IMG/VR virus record: IMGVR_UViG_3300037264_006630
Location: 64,001 to 128,000 of that record
Source of the DNA: a virus
Length of the DNA: 64,000 bases
Strand: one strand, 5' to 3'
A model generated the notes under the pieces. It had not been told where the DNA came from. It was given only the letters and a program-made list of their open reading frames with translations, and searched no databases. A program made the position numbers and the translations under genes. This document shows, piece by piece, positions 32,164 to 51,544 of this stretch (the first letter of the stretch is position 1; each line of letters starts with the position of its first letter).

Positions 32164-32848
32164 GCGGGTTGGGCGAGCGAGCGCAGGGCTTCGAGGAAGG
32201 GGACGAGGTGCTCGTTGTGCATGAGGGGGAGGGAACTGTCTATCGAATCGGCGCCGACGGCGCCGGCCCAGCGAACCCGATCGGGCGGACCGACGCGGCC
32301 GATGTGGCACGGCAGCCCGCGTGCGTGCGCGAACCGGACCCAGGCGGCGCCGGTCTCGAGCTTCCACGCGGTGTCGCCCCGACGAAGACCCCGCCGTAGC
32401 ACTGCTCGTCGATCGCCGCACCCACCTCGTCCTCGGTCATGCCGTTCTGGACGGCGACGTAGGCCGGGACGCGCGGATCGATGTCATCGCGCCAGTAGGC
32501 CGAGAAGGCGAGCGATGCGGCTCCGGCGGCGACCATGTCCGGGACCACGATGAAGGCTGGCGGCGGCACCGGCGCGGTCTCGGGGTAGTCGAGGTGGATG
32601 GCGATCCGGCGCATGTCGAACCGCGAGGGCATGATCGCCGCGGACGCCTCGCCGAGCGGCTGGCCGGCGGCACACCAGTCGGCGTAGGTCCGGCAGTCGT
32701 GGAACCAGCCGTGCTCGGTGCGGCGCGGGTTCATCTCGCCGCGCTGGGTGCATTCCCCGATGCTGGCGTCGGCGAGCTGGCGGACCATCTCGGGCACGCG
32801 GCGCCGAGGGTTCCAGCGGGTCTGGCCGACGTAGGCTTGGAGGGTCAC
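32160..32848 (-). pseudogene. TGT/DpdA-like TIM-barrel protein, frameshifted at a G4 run (32377-32380)
   Basis: WFHD..Y..W, FIVVPDMVA, YVAVQNGM, GGVFVG in frame 1; GDTAWKL, CHIGRVG, GADSIDSS in frame 2; one extra G restores VGGDTAWKL. Confidence 0.55.
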
Positions 32849-33030
32849 GAAACGTGCTCGTCCGCGGTCGCGAGGATGAGGTTCGGGACTCCATCGGCGA
32901 ACACGTACTCGCGGATCTCGCGGGTCTTGGTGCGACGGATGAGCCGGCCCTTGATGCCGTGCTCTCGGGCGAAGGCCAGCGCCTGGGCAGCGGTGCCATG
33001 GGTGAAGTCGGGCAGGTTCGCGGTGGTCAT
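32845..33030 (-). CDS. Hypothetical protein
   Basis: 61-aa ORF, stop overlaps the next GTG. Confidence 0.6.
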   Translation of the reverse strand: MTTANLPDFTHGTAAQALAFAREHGIKGRLIRRTKTREIREYVFADGVPNLILATADEHVS

Positions 33031-33061
33031 GCTCTGGAAGAGATGCACGTCGAGGGCCACT

Positions 33062-33991
33062 TCACGCGCTCGGTGAGGTGTGCGAAGCAGCGGCGGGGCC
33101 GGGCTCGAGGTAGCCGCAGCCGGCCGCCTTGGTCGCGCGTACCGCCCGGCCGCAGACCTTGCAGGGCTTGCGGTCGCGCTGCGGGGTGTAGGGCGTGGCG
33201 ACCCAGCGATCGAGCGGCGTGCCGGTCTGGGTCTTCGAGTTGTAGGCCATGATCGAGAGCTTGCGGCCGTTCTTCGCGGTGGGCGGCTTGTCGGCCTCGA
33301 GCTTGACGACCCGGGCAAACTGCTCGGGCAGGTCGACGGCGAAGCGCTGCCAGTCGCCCTTGGTGCCGTAGGGGCAGAACACGCAGGCGGACTTGCGCGG
33401 AACCGGGAAGCCGGCGCGCCGCACGAGATCCTCGCACGCGCAACGGCAGAGGCCGCGCTCGATCAGCGGGAAGCGGTTGCGGCGGATCGCGCCGCCCGGC
33501 CGGCGGCGGCGACGGCCGCCCGCGTTCGGATCCTTGTCTGCGCGGGATTCCTCGCCGCGCTCGAACCCGATCCAGACCTCGACCTCTTGGCCGGGGTACC
33601 GATCGTCGAGCCAGCTCTCGAAGCGCTCGACCTTGGCGACGGTGGTGCAGATCCGGTTCGGCCCGGCCATCGGGATCTGCTTCCGCGCGCGCAGCCACGC
33701 GAACAGGCTGCGCGCGTCGCGGACCGGGTAGTTGCTGTGGTCGATGCACACGAACTCGATCCCGTGGCGCGCGCACAGCGGCCGCACCACCTCGTCGATG
33801 TGGCGGTAGGTGCCGGGCCACTCGCCTGGATCGTCGGGGTGGCCGACGTCGATGAACACCACGACGTCGATCCGCTCGCCGCGCGCGATGCCCTCGACGA
33901 GCATGGCGAAGCTGTCGAGGCCACCGCCGAGCGAGAGCACGACGGGGCGGCGCCGGAGCCCCAGGTCGACGGTGAAGTCGAGCTGGTTCAC
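33062..33991 (-). CDS. PP-loop (PAPS-reductase-like) adenine nucleotide alpha hydrolase
   Basis: VVLSLGGGLDS, FIDVG..GEWPGTY, RICT..AK, WIGFERGE..R, FPLIE, KSACVFCPY. Confidence 0.8.
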   Translation of the reverse strand: MNQLDFTVDLGLRRRPVVLSLGGGLDSFAMLVEGIARGERIDVVVFIDVGHPDDPGEWPGTYRHIDEVVRPLCARHGIEFVCIDHSNYPVRDARSLFAWLRARKQIPMAGPNRICTTVAKVERFESWLDDRYPGQEVEVWIGFERGEESRADKDPNAGGRRRRRPGGAIRRNRFPLIERGLCRCACEDLVRRAGFPVPRKSACVFCPYGTKGDWQRFAVDLPEQFARVVKLEADKPPTAKNGRKLSIMAYNSKTQTGTPLDRWVATPYTPQRDRKPCKVCGRAVRATKAAGCGYLEPGPAAASHTSPSA

Positions 33992-34218
33992 GATGTCTCG
34001 TACAACTTGAGCGCGAGCTCGAGCGCTACGCCGCCGCGGGTGCGGTAGGCCGCGAGCACCGCGGACTTGACGGTCGGCCCGGTGCAGTCCTCGCCCCCGC
34101 CGGGGAGCGGGACTACCGGCGCGAGGTCGTGGATCGGACATGGCCCGTGCGGCGGGTGCGAGTGGCACGGGGTCTTGCCGGACCGCGCCATCGAGCAACA
34201 CATGCAGGTGACGATCAC
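33988..34218 (-). CDS. Small Cys/His-rich protein
   Basis: CMCC...CHSH...CPIH; overlaps both neighbours. Confidence 0.55.
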   Translation of the reverse strand: MIVTCMCCSMARSGKTPCHSHPPHGPCPIHDLAPVVPLPGGGEDCTGPTVKSAVLAAYRTRGGVALELALKLYETS

Positions 34219-34634
34219 GACACCGCTCCGAGCTCGCCGCTGGTGTCGTCGACCGCGCCGCGCTTGACCAGCGCGCGGGCGATCTCGATCGGGCCGACCC
34301 AGCGCAGGCAGTAGCGCATCCGCTCGGAGGCGCTCTCGAACCGCACGTCCGTGGTGTTGCCCGGAGCCCACCGGACGATGCCCCAATCGAGATCATCGGT
34401 GCCGTCGTCGATCGCGTTGGGGTTCATGTGGCCGATGGTGACCGGGACTCCGTCATCCGGGTCGATGGCGTGGAGGATGCCGAAGTCCTGAATCTCGGCG
34501 ATCGCCAGACCGGCGATCTTGTGGCGGTCGAGCAGGCGACCCAGGGCGGGGACGCCCGTGTAGAGCTCGCGCTTCATGGCGTCGAGAGTGGGGATCACGG
34601 GGAGGCCAGCGGTGGTGAGGGTGGCGGTGTTCAT
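34215..34634 (-). CDS. Hypothetical protein
   Basis: 139-aa ORF, ATGA overlap. Confidence 0.7.
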   Translation of the reverse strand: MNTATLTTAGLPVIPTLDAMKRELYTGVPALGRLLDRHKIAGLAIAEIQDFGILHAIDPDDGVPVTIGHMNPNAIDDGTDDLDWGIVRWAPGNTTDVRFESASERMRYCLRWVGPIEIARALVKRGAVDDTSGELGAVS

Positions 34635-39543: not shown

Positions 39544-39583
39544 TTGACCTCGCCAGTTTCGTGCATATCATGGAGTGTATGAA
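39544..39583 (+). promoter_or_regulatory. Sigma70-type promoter with 26-bp operator (39558-39583)
   Basis: TTGACC-N16-TATCAT; TTCGTGCAT-ATCATGGA-GTGTATGAA. Confidence 0.8.
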
Positions 39584-40949
39584 CATGACGCCCGACGCCG
39601 TTTACGTCCCCGCGCACGCGCTCGCGTCGATCCGCGCCGCGCTCGACAAGGCCACCAACGCCGACCGCCGCCACGCCACGCGCCTCAACCTCGCGGTTCC
39701 GGCCGCGCCGGTTCTCACCGTCGGTGAGGAGCGCCAGGTCCGCGAGTGCTGCGCCTGCCGCCACCAGGCCACCGACATCACGCAGTGGATGTCGGCCTGC
39801 TGCACCGCGCCGGCCCGCCTGCTCACCCTGGTCCCCGTGACGATCAGCGCGCCGCGCCCGACCTGCGGCGCCTGGGAGTTGCTCGCGGTGGTCGAGCGCC
39901 AGCCGGCCGACTTCGAGGGCAAGCCATCGCCGAACCTCCTGCGCCGCGTCCCCGGCTCGACCGAAGATCTAGATCTCGGGCGCTGGCGCACCGGCGACGC
40001 CACCCACTGCGACCACTGCGACGTGGATCGCCGCCGGAACGAGACCTTCCTGGTGCTCTCGCTCGAGAACGGCGAGATCAAGCAGGTCGGCCGCCAGTGC
40101 CTCGCCGCCTTCCTCGGCGACCAGTCCTACGAGTCGATCATCCGTCGCCTCGCCTGGCGCGAGTTGCTCACCGACGGTGGTGACGACGGCGAGGGCGGGT
40201 ACGGTGGTGGTGGTCGCTGGGGCGAGCCGGCGCCTGACATCGAGACGGTGCTGGCGCTCACCGCGACGGTCATCCGCAACGACGGCTGGCTGTCGAAGAC
40301 CGCCGCGCGCGAGCGCTTCGACGGGATCCGGGCGACCGCGGACCAGGTCTACTCGCTGCTCAACCCGCCGCGCGAGGGTGAGCAGCTCCGCGAGTGGCGC
40401 AAGGAGATCGTCCGCCTGGCCCCGCAGCCGACCGACATGGAGCACGCGACGGCGGCGCTCACCTGGGTTCGCGACATGGCCCCGACCTCGGACTACGACT
40501 GGTCGATCCACACCGCCGGCCGGCTCACCCACGTCGAGCACTTCGGGATCGTCTGTTCGATCGTTCCGGCCTACGACCGCGTGATCGGTCGCGAGATCGA
40601 GAAGCGCACCCGGCGCGCCGCAGTACCGGCCTCGGTCCACGTCGGTGCCGTCGGCGAGAAGCTCTCCGCCACCGGCATCTGCGAGAGCGCCCGCGCCGTT
40701 CCCGGCGACCAGTGGGGCACCCGGACTGTGATCACGATCGTGGCCGCCGATGGCGCGGTGGTGCAGTGGTGGAAGTCCGGGATCGTCGATGAGGTCATCG
40801 CGGGCCGCACCGTCACCATCACCGGCAAGGTGAAGAGCCACGGCCAGTACGACGGCCGCGCGATCACCACTCTCACCCGCTGCAAGCTGGTGGTGCTGCC
40901 CGAGGCAGCGCCCGACTGCGGCGGCGAGCAGACGGCGGTGGCGTCGTGA
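39579..40949 (+). CDS. Phage protein with Zn-binding motif and C-terminal OB-fold-like domain
   Basis: CDHC...RRNETF...KQVGRQCLAAFLG; HVGAVGEKL...VTITGKVKSHGQYDG...TTLTRCK. Confidence 0.75.
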   Translation: MNMTPDAVYVPAHALASIRAALDKATNADRRHATRLNLAVPAAPVLTVGEERQVRECCACRHQATDITQWMSACCTAPARLLTLVPVTISAPRPTCGAWELLAVVERQPADFEGKPSPNLLRRVPGSTEDLDLGRWRTGDATHCDHCDVDRRRNETFLVLSLENGEIKQVGRQCLAAFLGDQSYESIIRRLAWRELLTDGGDDGEGGYGGGGRWGEPAPDIETVLALTATVIRNDGWLSKTAARERFDGIRATADQVYSLLNPPREGEQLREWRKEIVRLAPQPTDMEHATAALTWVRDMAPTSDYDWSIHTAGRLTHVEHFGIVCSIVPAYDRVIGREIEKRTRRAAVPASVHVGAVGEKLSATGICESARAVPGDQWGTRTVITIVAADGAVVQWWKSGIVDEVIAGRTVTITGKVKSHGQYDGRAITTLTRCKLVVLPEAAPDCGGEQTAVAS

Positions 40950-43994: not shown

Positions 43995-44096
43995 GTGTCG
44001 TCGGCGACTACAGGCCGGCGACCACTCCGGAACCAGACTTCGCACACCTGCACGAGCGCACGAACCGGCACACCCCGTGCAGTACCAGGCACCATG
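43995..44096 (+). promoter_or_regulatory. Sigma54-type cassette L
   Basis: Palindrome 43995-44013, operator 44039-44064, CGGCACA-CCCC-GTGCA (44066-44081), ATG 44094. Confidence 0.8.
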
Positions 44097-45029
44097 ATCA
44101 TCACCGTCCAGTTCGCGTTCACCTGCCGTATCTGTGGTCGTCGCGGTGCAGCGGGGTCGCAGGCCGAGTGGAGCAAGGCCGGGGGCACGGCGCACACGAG
44201 CTGCGCCGCCAAGTCGGCCCCGGCGCCCAAGGCGAAGTCCGCACGCAAGCCGGCTGCCCCGCGCCCGGCACCGCGGGTTCCGCAGGCCGGTGAGATCGAG
44301 ATCTCGCGCAAGGGCGACCGCCACGGCCGCTACACCGTTGGCGAGACGATCTACGCGGCCAAGGTCAACGGCGGTGGTGGCGATGGCCACTACTGGACGG
44401 TGGTCGCCGAGGGCTTCTCGCGCGCGAACGAGGACATGGGTCACTACGACGACTTCTGTTGGGCGACCGTGCGCCCGGCGACCGATGCCGAGGTCGCGCC
44501 GGTGGCGGCGCGCCGCGCGGCGGCGGATGCCGCGAAGTCCGCTGCGGCGGTGGCCGCGGGTGGGATGGTCGCGCTGGCGCGCGTCGGCCAGGCGGTCACC
44601 GAAGGCACCTGCCTGTCGCTGGTGGCCGTCGAGGCGCACCGCGTCGTGATGGCGGGCGCCTCCAAGATCTCGACGGTCAAGGACCGCTCGACCACGACCA
44701 CCTGGTTCCGCACTGTCGACGGTACGCTGGTGCGCGAGTCGCACGGCTACGACGACCATCGCCAGTGCGCGTACATCACGGCCGAGGCGCTGCTCGCGTC
44801 GGTGGCCGCCCAGGTCGACGCGGACGCCGATGACCTGCCGCTGGCCGACTCGCTGCGCAACGTCGCCAGCCGCTACAGCTACCCGGTCCACCGCGCCCGC
44901 GTCTGGCTCGCCGCCTCGCGCGGCGAGACGGTCCCGGTGGAGGTCGTGCCGCCGACCCTCGAGCCGCGCGAGTTGGAGACGGACGCCGATGTCCTGGCGA
45001 TGTCGGCCCAGATGGGAGCCTCCCTGTGA
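44094..45029 (+). CDS. Hypothetical protein with N-terminal CxxC...HxxC
   Basis: TCRICG...AHTSC; 311 aa. Confidence 0.72.
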   Translation: MIITVQFAFTCRICGRRGAAGSQAEWSKAGGTAHTSCAAKSAPAPKAKSARKPAAPRPAPRVPQAGEIEISRKGDRHGRYTVGETIYAAKVNGGGGDGHYWTVVAEGFSRANEDMGHYDDFCWATVRPATDAEVAPVAARRAAADAAKSAAAVAAGGMVALARVGQAVTEGTCLSLVAVEAHRVVMAGASKISTVKDRSTTTTWFRTVDGTLVRESHGYDDHRQCAYITAEALLASVAAQVDADADDLPLADSLRNVASRYSYPVHRARVWLAASRGETVPVEVVPPTLEPRELETDADVLAMSAQMGASL

Positions 45030-45445
45030 CGATCACGGTCGACGACTCCACCGTCCACTGCGGCGCCATCCGGCACCTCTGCGCGACCAAGCGTACCGCA
45101 CAGATCACGGCGGCCACGCTCGCGCTCCGTGACGCTGGGTGGACCGTCGTTGGTCCCGCGTCTGGCCTCGGCTACCGCCGCCCCCTCGCGCTGCCTGGCG
45201 AGCGCATGTGCCAGCCGCTCGACGGGTCGCTCGCTGACCAGCGCGCACAGGGCTTCACCGTGTGGCGCCACGACGGCTCCATCAACCCTGACACCGGTGT
45301 TGGCCCGCGCACCGCCGCGCGAGCGATCACGATCGACGCCTGCGCCGGTCTGCCTCTGCTCGTGACCGAGGAGCGCGGCGATGTCGCCGAGGCGCGCGAG
45401 ATCATCGAGTGGTACATCGGGTCGATCGTGCAGGCCAACCCGTGA
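45026..45445 (+). CDS. Hypothetical protein
   Basis: GTGA overlaps. Confidence 0.65.
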   Translation: MTITVDDSTVHCGAIRHLCATKRTAQITAATLALRDAGWTVVGPASGLGYRRPLALPGERMCQPLDGSLADQRAQGFTVWRHDGSINPDTGVGPRTAARAITIDACAGLPLLVTEERGDVAEAREIIEWYIGSIVQANP

Positions 45446-46032
45446 CCGTCGGCCGCCTCAAGATCCTCCGCATCGAGGTGGATGGGCACTTCCGCGGCTC
45501 GTCGGATGTGCCCCGCCCCTGGGTGGCGCAGATCGACGGGCCGGACGCTCGCTGGGGCCTGGCTCGCACGTTCATTCAGTGCCTGCGCGACTGGCGTGGC
45601 GCTCACCGCGCGAACAGCGGCAACCTCTACGGCGTGGTCGCGGCGTTCCCGCTCCACGACGGCAAGCTCTACGAGGTGTGCCGCCTGCGCGGCAAGTCGA
45701 GCAAGCGCCACGTCGCGCGCGAGTTCTGGCGCGTGGTCGACGGCAAGATGGTCGAGCTCGAGCCGAGCGAGGCGCTCGCTCTTGCCGATGGCTACGATGG
45801 CCCCGCGGTCGAGCACACGGTCGCCGACGGGACCAAGGTGGCGCTCGTCACCGGGCTCGGGACCCCGACGCCGCTCGGGTTCGTGATGGCGGACGGCCGG
45901 CGCCTGTTCCGGCTGCGCGACGGCCACATCCACGAGGTCATGACCGACACCGGCCGCGAGCTCCTCGCGGTGCGAGACGGCGATGTCGCGTCCATCTCGG
46001 ACATGGAGGCGTTGGCGTGGCTGATGCGATGA
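45442..46032 (+). CDS. Hypothetical protein with internal domain duplication, upstream of the IbrA-like gene
   Basis: WVAQIDG...FPLHDGKLYEV...REFWRVVDG...EALALA repeated as KVALVTG...FRLRDGHIHEV...RELLAVRDG...EALAWL. Confidence 0.7.
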   Translation: MTVGRLKILRIEVDGHFRGSSDVPRPWVAQIDGPDARWGLARTFIQCLRDWRGAHRANSGNLYGVVAAFPLHDGKLYEVCRLRGKSSKRHVAREFWRVVDGKMVELEPSEALALADGYDGPAVEHTVADGTKVALVTGLGTPTPLGFVMADGRRLFRLRDGHIHEVMTDTGRELLAVRDGDVASISDMEALAWLMR

Positions 46033-47243
46033 AGCGACCGATCGGGATCGACGTCCTCGCCGCCGCTCGCCAGCGGATCGCGTGGGTGTTCGACGCCTTC
46101 CCGCGGATCTACCTGTCCGGCCCCAGCGGCAAGGACTCGTCGGTGATGATGCACCTGGTCTGCCAGGAGGCGCGTCGCCGCGGTCGGCGGGTGGGCGTGC
46201 TGTTCCTCGATCTCGAGGCGCAGTACCGCCTCACCATCGACCACGTCCGCGACATGTTCGCGCTCTACGCCGACGTGATCGATCCGTTCTGGGTCGCCCT
46301 GCCGCTCAACCTGCGCAACGCGGTGAGCCAGATCGCCCCGTTCTGGACGTGCTGGGATCCTGCGGCCGAGCCGCTCTGGGTGCGGCCCCGGGAGCCGGGC
46401 AGCATCGCCGACCCCGAGCGCTTCCCGTTCTACCGCCACGCGATGGAGTTCGAGGAGTTCGTCGAGGGGTTCGGCAACTGGTACGCGGGCGACGAGGCGT
46501 GCGCGTGCTTCGTCGGCATCCGCGCCAACGAGTCGCTCAACCGCTGGCGGGCGATCGTCCGGCGCCGGAAGTCGCGGCTCGAGGGCCGCGCCTACACCAC
46601 CTGGCGCGGTGACCAGCTCGTGAACGTCTACCCGATCTACGACTGGCGCACCGAGGATATCTGGACCTACGTCGGCCGCGAGCGCGCGGCCTACAACCGC
46701 ATCTACGACGGCATGCACCAGGCCGGGATGTCGATCCACCAGATGCGGATCTGCCAGCCCTACGGGGATGACCAGCGCCGGAGTTTGAACCTTTACCACG
46801 TCCTCGAGCCCCTCACCTGGACCCGCGTCGTCGCGCGCGTGGCCGGCGCCAACCAGGGCGCGCTCTACGCCGGCAAGCGCGGCAACATCCTCGGCAACGG
46901 CAACATCGTGCTGCCCGCCGGCCACACCTGGCAGAGCTTCGTGGAGTTCCTGCTCGCCTCGATGCCGCAGGCCGAGGCAGACAACTACCGCGACAAGATC
47001 GCGGTGTTCATCCAGTGGTGGCGCAACCGGTACGGCCTCGAGATGACCGAGGACGACGACCCCGATCTGGTCGGCACGTACAAGCGCCAGCCGACGTGGA
47101 AGCGGGTGGCCAAGGTCATCCTCAAGAACGACTTTCTCTGCAAGGGTCTGAGCTTCTCGCAGCAACGCAGCGAGCCGAGCTCGTACGACCGGTACAAGAA
47201 GCTGATGCGCGACCGCCGCGCGAGATGGGGCATCTACGCATGA
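46029..47243 (+). CDS. IbrA/YbdN-like PAPS-reductase-family (PP-loop) protein with DUF3440-like tail
   Basis: YLSGPSGKDSSV, FLDLEAQY, WVALPLNLRNAVS, FVGIRANESLNRW, VYPIYDWRTEDIW, MRICQPYGDDQR, ILKNDFLCKGLSF. Confidence 0.88.
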   Translation: MKRPIGIDVLAAARQRIAWVFDAFPRIYLSGPSGKDSSVMMHLVCQEARRRGRRVGVLFLDLEAQYRLTIDHVRDMFALYADVIDPFWVALPLNLRNAVSQIAPFWTCWDPAAEPLWVRPREPGSIADPERFPFYRHAMEFEEFVEGFGNWYAGDEACACFVGIRANESLNRWRAIVRRRKSRLEGRAYTTWRGDQLVNVYPIYDWRTEDIWTYVGRERAAYNRIYDGMHQAGMSIHQMRICQPYGDDQRRSLNLYHVLEPLTWTRVVARVAGANQGALYAGKRGNILGNGNIVLPAGHTWQSFVEFLLASMPQAEADNYRDKIAVFIQWWRNRYGLEMTEDDDPDLVGTYKRQPTWKRVAKVILKNDFLCKGLSFSQQRSEPSSYDRYKKLMRDRRARWGIYA

Positions 47244-47614
47244 CCGACGACAAGGACAAGAACGGCATCCCGCTGGACCTCGTGCGCGCTGCGCGCCGCG
47301 AGGAGTCGCTCCGCGGACGGGTCCACCTGTGCAGCACCCGCCGCGAGCCGCTCCTGGTCGATGGGCAGGTGGTCGGCTTCGTCACTCCGCGCCAGGTCGG
47401 CGACGCCTGGCGGCACGGCCCGATCTACGTGGCCCCGGGCTTCCGCAGTCGGGGACTCGTGGCCGCCTACTACGCCTCCCACCCGGAGCGGATCTGCGTG
47501 GCGTTCGTCGCCGACAGTAACCGCTCGTCGCGGTCTGCGCACGTCGCGGCTGGGTTCGCCAACTGGCGCCGCGGCAAGGACGGCTGGTTCATGCGGCGGG
47601 AGGCGCAGCCGTGA
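47240..47614 (+). CDS. Small GNAT-fold acetyltransferase-like protein
   Basis: VVGF...GPIYVAPGFRSRGL (motif A), NRSS..AHVAAGF (motif B). Confidence 0.65.
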   Translation: MTDDKDKNGIPLDLVRAARREESLRGRVHLCSTRREPLLVDGQVVGFVTPRQVGDAWRHGPIYVAPGFRSRGLVAAYYASHPERICVAFVADSNRSSRSAHVAAGFANWRRGKDGWFMRREAQP

Positions 47615-48240
47615 TCGAGGCCCTGACCGAGCAGCTCTGCGCCGAGCTCGCGCAGCTCGACGAGGACGCGCGGATCGACGCACTCAACGCCGTGCGCACC
47701 GCCCTGCACGCGGTGTCGCCGCTGCGCGCCGAGCCGGTCGACCTGGTGCTGTGGGTCCGGGCCGAGCAGGTCCGCGGCAACGACTACAACCCCAACAGCG
47801 TAGCGCCGCCCGAGATGCGGCTCCTCCAGCACAGCGTCCTGGCCAACGGCTTCACCATGCCGATCGTCACCCATGAGATCGACGACGGCGTGACCGAGGT
47901 GGTCGATGGGTTCCACCGCCACCGCATCGGCAAGGACACCCCGGAGATCCGCACGCGCTGTCACGCCCGCCTGCCGGTCACCCGGATCCGCGCCGACCGC
48001 GCCGACACCGGCGCCCGCATCGCCGCCACCATCGAGCACAACCGCGCCCGCGGTGAGCATCAGGTCGGCCGCATGAGCGAGATCGTCCGCATGCTGTACC
48101 AGCAGGGCTGGAGCGAGACGCGGATCATGAAGGAGTTGGGGATGGAGGCCGACGAAGTGTTGCGCCTCAAGCAGATGACCGGGCTCGCTGACCTGTTCGC
48201 GGGCCGTGAATTCTCCGAGGCATGGGAGCCGAACGAATGA
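47611..48240 (+). CDS. IbrB/YbdM-like ParB/Srx-domain protein
   Basis: NDYNPNSVAPPEMRLL..SVLANGFTMPIV, VVDGFHRH, ATIEHNRARGEH, ELGMEADEVLRLKQMTG. Confidence 0.9.
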   Translation: MIEALTEQLCAELAQLDEDARIDALNAVRTALHAVSPLRAEPVDLVLWVRAEQVRGNDYNPNSVAPPEMRLLQHSVLANGFTMPIVTHEIDDGVTEVVDGFHRHRIGKDTPEIRTRCHARLPVTRIRADRADTGARIAATIEHNRARGEHQVGRMSEIVRMLYQQGWSETRIMKELGMEADEVLRLKQMTGLADLFAGREFSEAWEPNE

Positions 48241-48461
48241 CCGACCGCATCCGCCACCTCACCGTCCTGCTCGAGCAGGACACCCGCACCGACGATCTCG
48301 AACCGATCATCGCCGCCATCTCCCACATCCGCGGCGTCGCCAAGGTGACGCCCGGCCAGCCGGTGAACATGAGTGACTACATCGCCCGCGAGACCGCCAA
48401 GCGCGAACTCGGCGTGCAGCTCTTGGCGATCGTCTTCCCGAAGCAGGAGCCGCGGTCGTGA
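48237..48461 (+). CDS. Hypothetical protein
   Basis: ATGA overlap; 74 aa. Confidence 0.65.
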   Translation: MTDRIRHLTVLLEQDTRTDDLEPIIAAISHIRGVAKVTPGQPVNMSDYIARETAKRELGVQLLAIVFPKQEPRS

Positions 48462-49106: not shown

Positions 49107-49208
49107 CTGTCGCCGCCAGCGACACCCGGCCCCGATCGCCCCCAGCATCCGCGCCACCTTCCGTCCACCGCCAACCTGGCACCCCTCGTGCTCTACACCT
49201 CCACCATG
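49107..49208 (+). promoter_or_regulatory. Sigma54-type cassette M (operator absent)
   Basis: Palindrome 49107-49125, TGGCACC-CCTC-GTGCT (49177-49192), ATG 49206. Confidence 0.72.
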
Positions 49209-50291: not shown

Positions 50292-50392
50292 CTGGAGTCG
50301 GCGACGACAGTTGAGCCGCTACTCCGGACCAGCCTTCGCGCACATGAACGTGCGCACGAACGGCACGCCGCGTGCTGTAGTATCCGGGCATG
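50292..50392 (+). promoter_or_regulatory. Sigma54-type cassette N
   Basis: Palindrome 50292-50310, operator TTCGCGCAC-ATGAACGT-GCGCACGAA 50335-50360, CGGCACG-CCGC-GTGCT (50361-50376), ATG 50390. Confidence 0.8.
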
Positions 50393-51544
50393 CAAGCGCT
50401 CCTGAACATCACGACGACGAGGCCCGGCCGCACTGACCGTGGCGTCATCGACGATGACGCGGTTGCGGCGCTGCTCGCCGCCAACGCGCCGGTGGCGATC
50501 GGCGTGTCGGGCGGGAAGGACTCCTGCGCCTGCGCGCTGAAGACCATCGAGCACCTCGACGCGATCGGTCACACCGGCCCCCGCGTCCTGGTCCACAGCG
50601 ACTTGGGCCGGGTGGAGTGGGCGGATTCGGGCCCCACCTGCGAGCGGCTGGCCGCCCACCTCGGCCTCGAGTTGCTGACCGTCCGTCGCGAGGCTGGCGA
50701 CATGATGGACCGCTGGCTCGTCCGCTGGTCCAACAACTGCGAGCGCTACCGCACCCTCCGGTGCGTGAAGAAGATCCTGCCCTGGTCGACGCCGGCCATG
50801 CGGTTTTGCACCAGCGAGATGAAGACCGCCGTCATCTGCCGTGCCCTGGTGGCGCGCTTCCCGGGCCAGACCATCGTGTCGGCCAGCGGCATCCGCCGCG
50901 AGGAGAGCGCCCGACGGAAGAAGGCGCCGATCTCCAAGCCGCAGAAGAAGCTGACCAGCACGACCCGCTGCACCACCGGCCTGGACTGGAACCCGATCCT
51001 CGAGTGGACCAAGACCGACGTGTTCGCCTTCTGCGCTGACCGCGGCTTCGCGATGCACGAGGCGTACGCCACCTACGGGGTGACGCGGGTGAGCTGCGTG
51101 TTCTGCATCATGTCGAGCGCCGACGACCTCGTGGCCTCGGCCGCGTGCCTGGGCAACCAGGACGTCTTCCGCGAGATGGTCGACCTGGAGATTCGCAGCA
51201 CCTTTGCCTTCCAGGGCGGCAAGTGGCTGGCTGATTCTGCACCCCACCTGCTCGACGCCGACCGCCGCGCGGCCCTCGTGGTCGCCAAGGAGCGTGCAGC
51301 CCGGCGAGTGGCGGCGGAGAGCCGGATCCCCAAGCACCTCCTCTTCACCAAGGGCTGGCCCACCGTCATGCCCACCGCGGAAGAGGCGGTGATGCTGTGC
51401 GAGGTTCGCTCCGAGGTGGCCGCGCTGCTCGGCCTCACCATCGAGTACACCGAGCCCGCGGCGCTACTCGGGCGCTACCGCGAGCTGATGGCGATGAACG
51501 CGGCAAAGGTGCAGGTCGATGACGAGGACGACGACGACGCTTGA
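50390..51544 (+). CDS. PAPS-reductase-family (PP-loop) protein
   Basis: IGVSGGKDS, HSDLGRVEW, RFCTSEMK, SGIRREESARR, WNPILEWT, RVSCVFCIMSS. Confidence 0.88.
   Translation: MQALLNITTTRPGRTDRGVIDDDAVAALLAANAPVAIGVSGGKDSCACALKTIEHLDAIGHTGPRVLVHSDLGRVEWADSGPTCERLAAHLGLELLTVRREAGDMMDRWLVRWSNNCERYRTLRCVKKILPWSTPAMRFCTSEMKTAVICRALVARFPGQTIVSASGIRREESARRKKAPISKPQKKLTSTTRCTTGLDWNPILEWTKTDVFAFCADRGFAMHEAYATYGVTRVSCVFCIMSSADDLVASAACLGNQDVFREMVDLEIRSTFAFQGGKWLADSAPHLLDADRRAALVVAKERAARRVAAESRIPKHLLFTKGWPTVMPTAEEAVMLCEVRSEVAALLGLTIEYTEPAALLGRYRELMAMNAAKVQVDDEDDDDA

Follow-up and report, generated by a model that had tools for sequence, protein, structure and literature searches.

Phage-encoded pairs of a PP-loop enzyme of the IbrA/YbdN type and a ParB-like protein of the IbrB/YbdM type are already known, and what is added here is a form of the pair that carries a GNAT. 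Escherichia coli K-12 carries YbdN and YbdM, and the IbrA and IbrB proteins of E. coli ECOR-9 activate eib gene expression, a regulatory effect and the only phenotype known to have been published for them. The pairs of the ECOR-9 prophage island and of K-12 have a common build, with PAPS_reduct and DUF3440 domains in IbrA, a ParB-like IbrB, and the two genes adjacent on one strand. Phage genes annotated as IbrA/IbrB in Escherichia phage PhiR5_2 and in Streptococcus phages CHPC1230 and CHPC1148 are alike in build, and the PhiR5_2 pair (46-50% identical to the proteins described here) is annotated 'co-activator of prophage gene expression'. Compared with these pairs, the module described here adds a mini-GNAT between the two genes, a repeat protein upstream and an SGPSGKDS variant of the PP-loop. 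The E. coli ybdNM operon is controlled by a dedicated LysR-type repressor (PMC9068703). Literature searches on IbrA/IbrB, YbdN/YbdM, DUF3440 and PAPS-reductase with ParB recovered no functional or biochemical study, and no paper describing an IbrA-GNAT-IbrB three-gene set was found.

Several better characterised systems share parts of this architecture. Mom of phage Mu is a GNAT-fold enzyme that modifies adenine N6 in DNA and evades restriction; likened here by description, it acts alone, is about twice as long as the mini-GNAT and lacks IbrA/IbrB partners. DndB and DndC combine a ParB-superfamily protein with a PP-loop ATP pyrophosphatase in DNA modification (PMC10853773), a pairing that recalls the module, but IbrA falls far short of the DndC cut-off and is without the DndC cysteines, DndA, DndD and DndE had no match in the neighbouring ORFs scanned, and Dnd systems come without a GNAT. 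A phage ParB-like protein is strictly required for the DNA thymine dioxygenase encoded next to it to act on double-stranded DNA (5mYOX176 with ParB176, PMC13229309), and IbrB would likewise be encoded beside a putative DNA-modifying enzyme. The enzymes differ, 5mYOX176 being an Fe(II)/2-oxoglutarate dioxygenase and the module having a PP-loop enzyme and a GNAT; moreover, an HTH-like tail is present in IbrB, while the ParBs of thymine dioxygenases show no obvious domain for binding DNA. The gp48 GNAT of phage PaMx11 acetylates 5-aminomethyl-dU within DNA in a thymidine hypermodification pathway (PMC8989533) and, as far as its description allows the comparison, offers a phage GNAT performing the final acetylation of a base amine installed by earlier enzymes. 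Three further enzymes take part there, a 5-hmdU DNA kinase, an amino-acid:DNA transferase and a flavin lyase, and none of the three was detected at the module. Lastly, a bacterial, GTP-binding ParB-CTPase-fold protein fused to an acetyltransferase domain has been described (PMC12704722), which resembles the predicted fusions reported below in holding both domains in one polypeptide; the passages on it mention no PP-loop partner.

The window analysed here is a 64,000-nucleotide stretch of the complete, 185-kb genome of an uncultured phage, with 70% GC. Four overlapping ORFs with a strong coding signal occupy positions 45442-48240 (Table 1), each with a third-position GC of 0.92-0.95, and they are joined by 4-nt ATGA/GTGA overlaps at 46029, 47240 and 47611. 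The first is itself coupled to the preceding gene by a GTGA overlap, and the chain extends upstream through 45026-45445 and 43995-45029 and downstream through 48237-48461. The four coupled genes described in an earlier note on this DNA are therefore all present where that note placed them.

Table 1. Features of the module and its candidate upstream element (window positions).
Feature	Position	Strand	Basis
Candidate sigma54-type -24/-12 element, GGCAC-N6-TGC	44067..44080	+	Pattern match
P0001, 196 aa, function unassigned, internal repeat	45442..46032	+	GC3 0.92, repeat score, phrog_26647 match
IbrA/YbdN-type PP-loop ATP pyrophosphatase, PAPS_reduct and helical DUF3440	46029..47243	+	Pfam, identity, model
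Basic mini-GNAT acyltransferase-fold protein, 124 aa, pI 10.5	47240..47614	+	Model, structural matches
IbrB/YbdM-type ParB/Srx-fold protein, acidic, C-terminal HTH-like segment	47611..48240	+	phrog_2159, profile alignment

The identity of IbrA (pI 9.4) is supported by matches to PF01507 (PAPS_reduct, N-terminal; E 1.3e-13, 51.8 bits against a cut-off of 22.5) and PF11922 (DUF3440; E 1.3e-36, 126.5 bits against 25), and by 46% identity to the protein annotated as IbrA in Escherichia phage PhiR5_2. The N-terminal domain of its structural model (pLDDT 82) resembles CysH, CysD and FMN adenylyltransferase, with TtuA and NcsA among the weaker matches. As had been noticed earlier, the PP-loop departs from SFSGGKDS; it reads SGPSGKDS, in which the first Ser and the Gly of SGG in canonical SxSGGKDS are replaced. 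This form is rare, occurring in 4 of 110 aligned IbrA sequences (three lineages), against SFSGGKDS or SFSAGKDS in 92; G34-K35-D36-S37 are invariant in the alignment. No cysteine is invariant there, C242 and C371 being kept in long-type IbrAs only and missing from the short type, which also partners the present GNAT family, and the conserved C-terminal cysteine motif of PAPS/APS reductases was not found in the alignment. Identity with CysH was rejected on this cysteine content and on a TIGR02057 score of 38 bits against a cut-off of 254, so that the likeness is at the level of fold only. DndC was likewise rejected, on 16.3 bits against 290.4 for TIGR03183 and on the lack of an invariant cysteine for the Fe-S cluster and persulfide. 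The analogy to DndC and SspD drawn in the earlier note is weak on these grounds.

IbrB matches phrog_2159 (E 1.4e-64) and shares 50% identity with the protein annotated as IbrB in phage PhiR5_2. Its profile aligns to the N-terminal domains of ParB (4umk) and Noc (7ol9) across box I (NDYNPN) and box II (DGFHR), and the single sequence scores 15.4 bits with Pfam ParB_N, below the cut-off of 26.3. Its pI of 5.4 is unusual for a DNA binder. IbrA/IbrB-type relatives are widespread: IMG/VR has at least 347, and records of cultured phages contain about 220, the pair occurring there in many phages of unrelated hosts with differing flanking genes. Among IbrA-bearing loci the two genes are adjacent and co-oriented in all but two, and those two contigs end right past IbrA. 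The adjacency claimed previously is thereby borne out, while its restriction to prophages was too narrow, given the present copy in a complete 185-kb phage genome and the relatives in many cultured phages.

Within the module, the gene that alone separates ibrA from ibrB encodes a protein whose AlphaFold model (pLDDT 91) finds GNATs as every top match in the PDB and BFVD with Foldseek (TM up to 0.75), which agrees with the small GNAT proposed from the sequence; the top matches are protein, polyamine and sugar acetyltransferases. Pfam falls below its cut-off (PF00583, 15.7 bits against 20.7), and several relatives carry a precomputed PF00583 match. Motif A (V64-x4-R69-x2-G72-x-V74) reads R69-S-R-G72-L-V74 against the usual Q/R-x-x-G-x-G/A, the last position being Val rather than Gly or Ala; all of 26 relatives keep R69 and G72, and motif B (N94...H101...G105-F106) is retained. 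Judged on these features, the mini-GNAT family is a diverged and shortened GNAT. Its median pI is 10.4, and it comprises 41 clusters at 90% identity and 288 representatives at 50%. No relatives appeared in a scan of one genome per prokaryote species, nor did tblastn with the GNAT against cultured phages and plasmids return anything; megablast of the region against cultured phages also gave zero matches. The best BFVD match of the model is a 135-aa GNAT of Ralstonia phage RSL2 (TM 0.75).

The internal duplication previously reported for the upstream protein, P0001, is real, though modest: residues 69-113 align with 155-192 (z = 5.8), and none of 500 shuffles scores as high. Residues 18-108 match phrog_26647 (E 3.6e-5), and homologues lie immediately 5' of IbrA in six further loci (L005, L013, L020, L023, L024 and L032), so this domain of about 100 residues is a frequent upstream partner of IbrA. 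Searching the ESM Atlas with P0001 gave only low-scoring and mutually inconsistent matches.

Linkage of the GNAT to the pair was assessed in loci retrieved by the GNAT sequence alone, which comprised 12 non-redundant informative lineages. Of these, 11 have a PAPS_reduct-family gene at most one gene away on the same strand, and in the twelfth (L004) the distance is 3.3 kb. The order IbrA-GNAT-IbrB, which the earlier note had singled out for a wider search, is found in the window and in L005, L011 and L013, so the GNAT is conserved at this position. Two other arrangements occur, MTase-GNAT-unknown-IbrA-IbrB in L006, L007, L012, L015 and L016, and IbrB-x-IbrA-GNAT in L008; DNA methyltransferase genes thus adjoin the GNAT in one of three layouts. 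A profile search of the PDB with the protein of about 300 aa in the GNAT-x-IbrA-IbrB layout found nothing. Three proteins (P0045, P0046 and P0047; 67-77% mutually identical, with a variable linker) are predicted GNAT::IbrB fusions, one of which is seen on 8 contigs. A sister mini-GNAT family, related to the first at a probability of 94% and E 1.6e-7 in profile comparison, occupies the slot between IbrA and IbrB in 8 further viral contigs. Since the linkage is kept in three orders, fusions to IbrB exist and a sister family sits in the same slot, the GNAT is functionally tied to the pair and very probably a genuine partner of it. More distant relatives of the GNAT domain (E 1e-14 to 1e-16) are fused to SNF2 DNA translocases (P0081, P0088) or lie beside a LigD-type phosphoesterase domain (P0092), and these may not share the substrate of the mini-GNAT.

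That the PP-loop and GNAT motifs have stayed unchanged even in highly diverged relatives indicates genuine catalysis by both IbrA and the GNAT. What the module does with this activity is less certain. Chemical modification of nucleic acid, most likely of phage DNA after replication, seems to us a good possibility, if somewhat short of probable. The module would then be a mobile phage cassette in which the repeat protein, IbrA, a dedicated mini-GNAT and IbrB are co-translated and cooperate. IbrB, with its HTH-like tail and a ParB fold that would bind NTP, could bring the enzymes to DNA or activate them there, and IbrA, as a member of the PAPS-reductase, CysD and FMN-adenylyltransferase group, could adenylylate a substrate group at the expense of ATP. 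The adenylylated group would be displaced by a nitrogen or oxygen nucleophile, sulfur transfer being unlikely, and the basic mini-GNAT would move an acyl group from acyl-CoA to an amine made or exposed in the first step. The adenylation and subsequent acylation suggested in the earlier note stand as an inference, as does their target. Because most IbrA/IbrB pairs have no GNAT, this subunit is optional and would therefore decorate or cap the core product of IbrA and IbrB. The full version of this scheme, in which IbrA activates a base or the backbone and the GNAT caps it, so that both, with IbrB and the upstream partner, install a novel acyl-type mark on phage DNA, is put forward tentatively and is rather unlikely to hold in every part. 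Against a DNA substrate stand the regulatory nature of the published eib phenotype, the acidity of IbrB and the general habit of GNATs, for which nucleic acids are a much less common acetylation target than proteins and small molecules.

The target could instead be a protein or small molecule, for example a protein of the host or the phage, or else a signalling molecule or nucleotide adenylylated by IbrA, with a role in anti-defence or host takeover. We regard this as doubtful but worth serious consideration, as most characterised GNATs act on such targets, the closest structural matches of the mini-GNAT are protein, polyamine and sugar acetyltransferases, and CysD and FMN adenylyltransferase, the structural neighbours of IbrA, use small molecules. 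The module also sits among accessory genes in a unit with its own candidate sigma54-like promoter. However, the predicted fusion to IbrB, with its ParB fold and HTH-like tail, suggests a DNA setting, as do the SNF2 DNA motors and the DNA-end phosphoesterase to which relatives are fused, and the methyltransferase genes adjoining the GNAT in one layout.

It is improbable that IbrA, IbrB and the GNAT serve chiefly to regulate the transcription of phage genes, with enzyme folds used for sensing or, for example, for acetylating a DNA-bound regulator. The co-activator annotation of the PhiR5_2 pair, the HTH-like segment of IbrB and the LysR-type repressor dedicated to ybdNM (PMC9068703) fit such a role, but catalytic motifs that stay invariant in very diverged relatives do not, nor does the wide occurrence of the pair in many cultured phages whose hosts are unrelated and in which the flanking genes differ. 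An RNA target (tRNA or rRNA), reached by TilS-type activation or ac4C-type acetylation, has an equally low probability. The PP-loop enzymes TilS, TtuA and ThiI and the GNATs TmcA and NAT10 modify RNA, and these precedents, together with TtuA and NcsA among the weaker matches of IbrA, favour it. NAT10 is also cited as an RNA-modifying GNAT in work on phage DNA hypermodification (PMC8989533). The partners and fusions are nevertheless of DNA type (ParB, SNF2, DNA methylase and LigD-type phosphoesterase), and no RNA-binding domain was detected.

Sulfur transfer, whether phosphorothioation like that of DndC/SspD or base thiolation, is suggested by the PAPS-reductase Pfam family of IbrA and by a pairing with a ParB-type protein reminiscent of DndB/DndC. 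It is very improbable because IbrA has no invariant cysteine, even C242 and C371 being missing from the short type, and falls far below the TIGR02057 (CysH) and TIGR03183 (DndC) cut-offs; desulfurase and DndD/E matches were also absent from the neighbouring ORFs tested with Pfam, PHROG and NCBIfam. That the GNAT is an unrelated passenger placed by chance between ibrA and ibrB is strongly disfavoured, for although about nine-tenths of some 95 IMG/VR loci retrieved through IbrA lack it, its linkage across three gene orders in 11 of 12 lineages, three diverged predicted fusions to IbrB and a second GNAT family in the same slot all argue otherwise.

If the acyl-type marking of phage DNA proves correct, the module would provide the first biochemical function for IbrAB/YbdNM and a new family of DNA-modifying enzymes. 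The dedicated acyltransferase subunit narrows the possible chemistry to ATP activation and acyl transfer, and the compact four-gene cassette allows a direct test of IbrA/IbrB function. Should the product be a new DNA modification, there would be consequences for how phages escape restriction, for the reading of modified DNA in metagenomes and for the enzymes available as DNA tools.

Accessory genes surround the module, and Pfam, NCBIfam and PHROGs assign no function to most of the neighbours. Type IV-B CRISPR-Cas with a cysH-like accessory gene was considered and rejected, as csf1, cas11, csf2 and csf3 are lacking among the 17 ORFs scanned between 39.5 and 58.7 kb, in which Pfam and NCBIfam detect no Cas families. 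The window holds 15 copies of the GGCAC-N6-TGC pattern where 5.1 would be expected, and none of 100 shuffles yields as many as 15. After the copy at 44067 the next on the same strand is at 49178, and these two candidate sigma54-type elements may therefore delimit the transcription unit of the module.

Four translationally coupled genes had been described in the earlier note, and all of them are confirmed as open reading frames with high third-position GC joined by ATGA/GTGA overlaps (see table). The window spans positions 64001-128000 of its parent virus record (184,943 bp, GC ~70%), a record rated as complete, with direct repeats at its termini, and a nucleotide search found no cultured phage close to this region at the DNA level. 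Further 4-nt start/stop overlaps continue the series into two genes upstream and one downstream, but these three flanking genes have no family match and none travels with the module in other loci, where just the four named genes recur together.

Features of the IbrA/IbrB module and its surroundings (window coordinates)
Feature	Position	Strand	Remarks
Overlap-chain gene	43995-45029	+	upstream
Overlap-chain gene	45026-45445	+	upstream
P0001, repeat protein	45442-46032	+	GC3 in 0.92-0.95 range; coupled by overlap
P0002, IbrA	46029-47243	+	GC3 in 0.92-0.95 range; coupled by overlap
P0003, mini-GNAT	47240-47614	+	GC3 in 0.92-0.95 range; coupled by overlap
P0004, IbrB	47611-48240	+	GC3 in 0.92-0.95 range; coupled by overlap
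Overlap-chain gene	48237-48461	+	downstream
sigma54-like elements, example sites	37193, 39114, 41313, 44067, 49178, 50362	+	GGCAC-N6-TGC pattern
sigma54-like elements, example sites	34914, 36016, 36872	-	GGCAC-N6-TGC pattern
Second PAPS_reduct-family gene	50390-51544	+	phrog_424, E 4e-26; PF01507, E 2.3e-9
462-aa protein	39561-40949	+	phrog_2319 (unknown function), E 2.5e-49

The first gene encodes a genuine internal duplication (z = 5.8), whose ~100-aa unit corresponds to phrog_26647 and also precedes IbrA in a number of further loci. The second is of the IbrA/YbdN type, with PAPS_reduct and DUF3440 domains each over cut-off and 46% identity to the protein annotated as IbrA in Escherichia phage PhiR5_2; its PP-loop, noted earlier as SGPSGKDSS rather than SFSGGKDS, is a real and rare variant (SGPSGKDS in 4 of 110 sequences, from 3 lineages). 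The fourth matches phrog_2159 (E 1.4e-64) and is 50% identical to IbrB of the same phage, and the IbrB profile, which carries an HTH-like tail, aligns to boxes I and II of ParB/Noc. Between them, the small protein proposed to be a GNAT falls below Pfam GNAT cut-offs, and its assignment comes from a predicted model, folded together with 26 relatives (pLDDT 91), for which all leading PDB and BFVD matches are GNATs. Across the family, R69 and G72 of motif A do not vary, nor do N94, H101, G105 and F106 of motif B.

An IbrA profile scan of IMG/VR returned at least 347 relatives. As the earlier note had held, IbrB is normally the neighbour of IbrA, being adjacent and co-oriented in all examined loci but two, both on contigs that stop just past IbrA. 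Three layouts were found: direct IbrA-IbrB; IbrB-X-IbrA (45 loci: L026, L033-L036, L045-L114), in which X is always a conserved ~140-aa protein distinct from the GNAT, with no Pfam match and a consensus including ...W..SCEHYLTN..MNRIAWLGQAA...; and IbrA-insert-IbrB, where the insert belongs to the window's GNAT family or to a second family (8 loci). Pfam GNAT models match 5 of 7 distinct members of this second family, which hhalign relates to the first (probability 94%, E 1.6e-7). About one in ten of the sampled IbrA/IbrB pairs has a GNAT, which is therefore an optional yet recurrent subunit.

Relatives gathered through the GNAT sequence alone formed 41 clusters at 90% identity, with 7 viral and 8 metagenome loci, and collapsing identical copies left 12 informative lineages. 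In 11 of these, the GNAT has a co-oriented PAPS_reduct-family gene no more than one gene away; in the twelfth (L004), such a gene is 3.3 kb distant. The window's order, IbrA-GNAT-IbrB, occurs in L005, L011 and L013, while L006, L007, L012, L015 and L016 have a second module type (for example, L007:5369-8945) in which an N6/N4 DNA methylase and the GNAT are followed, in order, by a conserved protein of ~300 aa, IbrA and IbrB. The ~300-aa protein matched nothing in Pfam or the PDB, and this IbrA is short (about 365-380 aa) and shares only 31-37% identity with that of the window. In L008 (2626-7126) the order is IbrB-x-IbrA-GNAT-second PAPS_reduct, with the IbrB-like domain at the C-terminal end of an ORF of 473 aa. 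In L009 (5302-8062) an ORF of ~345 aa ends in the GNAT domain, and genes for a PAPS_reduct protein lacking DUF3440 and a DUF488-N3a protein come next; ParB is absent from that record. The GNATs of the window and L012 share 62% identity, compared to 32% for their IbrAs; the GNAT would seem either to be far more conserved than its partner or to have moved between module types. Furthermore, a search for longer proteins recovered three GNAT::IbrB fusions (374-387 aa, mutual identity 67-77%, with a variable, hydrophilic linker), one of them on 8 contigs. From this linkage and these fusions, membership of the GNAT in the IbrA/IbrB machine is well supported.

The IbrA family has no solved structure; in the predicted model of IbrA, the N-terminal domain is similar to PAPS/APS reductases, CysD and FMN adenylyltransferase. 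The protein scores far under the CysH and DndC equivalog cut-offs and lacks any invariant cysteine, C242 and C371 being retained in long-type IbrAs only. These features favour ATP-dependent adenylyl transfer or activation over reduction or sulfur transfer. Sulfur chemistry is unlikely on those same scores and cysteines.

One clue to the target is the marked basicity of the mini-GNAT family (median pI 10.4, net charge +9; pI 9.4 for IbrA and 5.4 for IbrB). Among 288 representatives of the domain from an exhaustive profile search, it is joined to SNF2-type DNA translocase domains in P0081 and P0088 and stands beside a LigD-type phosphoesterase domain in P0092; these large proteins, combining SNF2 helicase, KTSC and LigD-type phosphoesterase domains with the mini-GNAT, could be polyvalent proteins belonging to mobile elements. 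No multidomain member is fused to IbrA, and the evidence from the SNF2- and phosphoesterase-fused proteins is suggestive only, as they are more remote relatives (E 1e-14 to 1e-16). Published precedents include a DNA thymine dioxygenase that requires a phage ParB-like protein to act on dsDNA (PMC13229309), the GNAT gp48 of PaMx11, which acetylates aminated thymine within DNA (PMC8989533), ParB-fold::acetyltransferase fusions, which bind GTP (PMC12704722), and the pairing of DndB with DndC (PMC10853773).

Where the earlier note proposed adenylation followed by acylation, the best available reading, held tentatively and at somewhat less than even chances, is that the IbrA/GNAT/IbrB machine modifies DNA, which would first be activated with ATP and then receive an acyl group. 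Competing explanations are that the machine acts on a protein or small molecule, that it is mainly a regulator, that its target is RNA or, as an unlikely option, that it carries out sulfur chemistry. The literature searched contained no functional study of IbrA/IbrB and no paper on the three-gene set. The repressor of the E. coli ybdNM operon is YbdO/CitR (PMC9068703). The set is a variant of the known IbrA/IbrB pair.

The sigma54-type -24/-12 core GGCAC-N6-TGC occurs 15 times in the window against 5.1 expected, and many copies sit immediately upstream of gene units, which suggests that the phage accessory region may be expressed via sigma54. The elements at 44067 and 49178 bracket the module's unit. 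A Pfam/NCBIfam scan of 17 ORFs between 39.5 and 58.7 kb found no Cas genes, and the 444-aa and 202-aa ORFs tested at 32240-34396 (-) had no Pfam match at E ≤ 0.01. Of the ORFs searched close to the module, the 462-aa phrog_2319 protein gave the one other strong family match. A second, unrelated PAPS_reduct-family gene, without DUF3440, follows 2 kb after the module and is preceded by the sigma54-like element at 50362.
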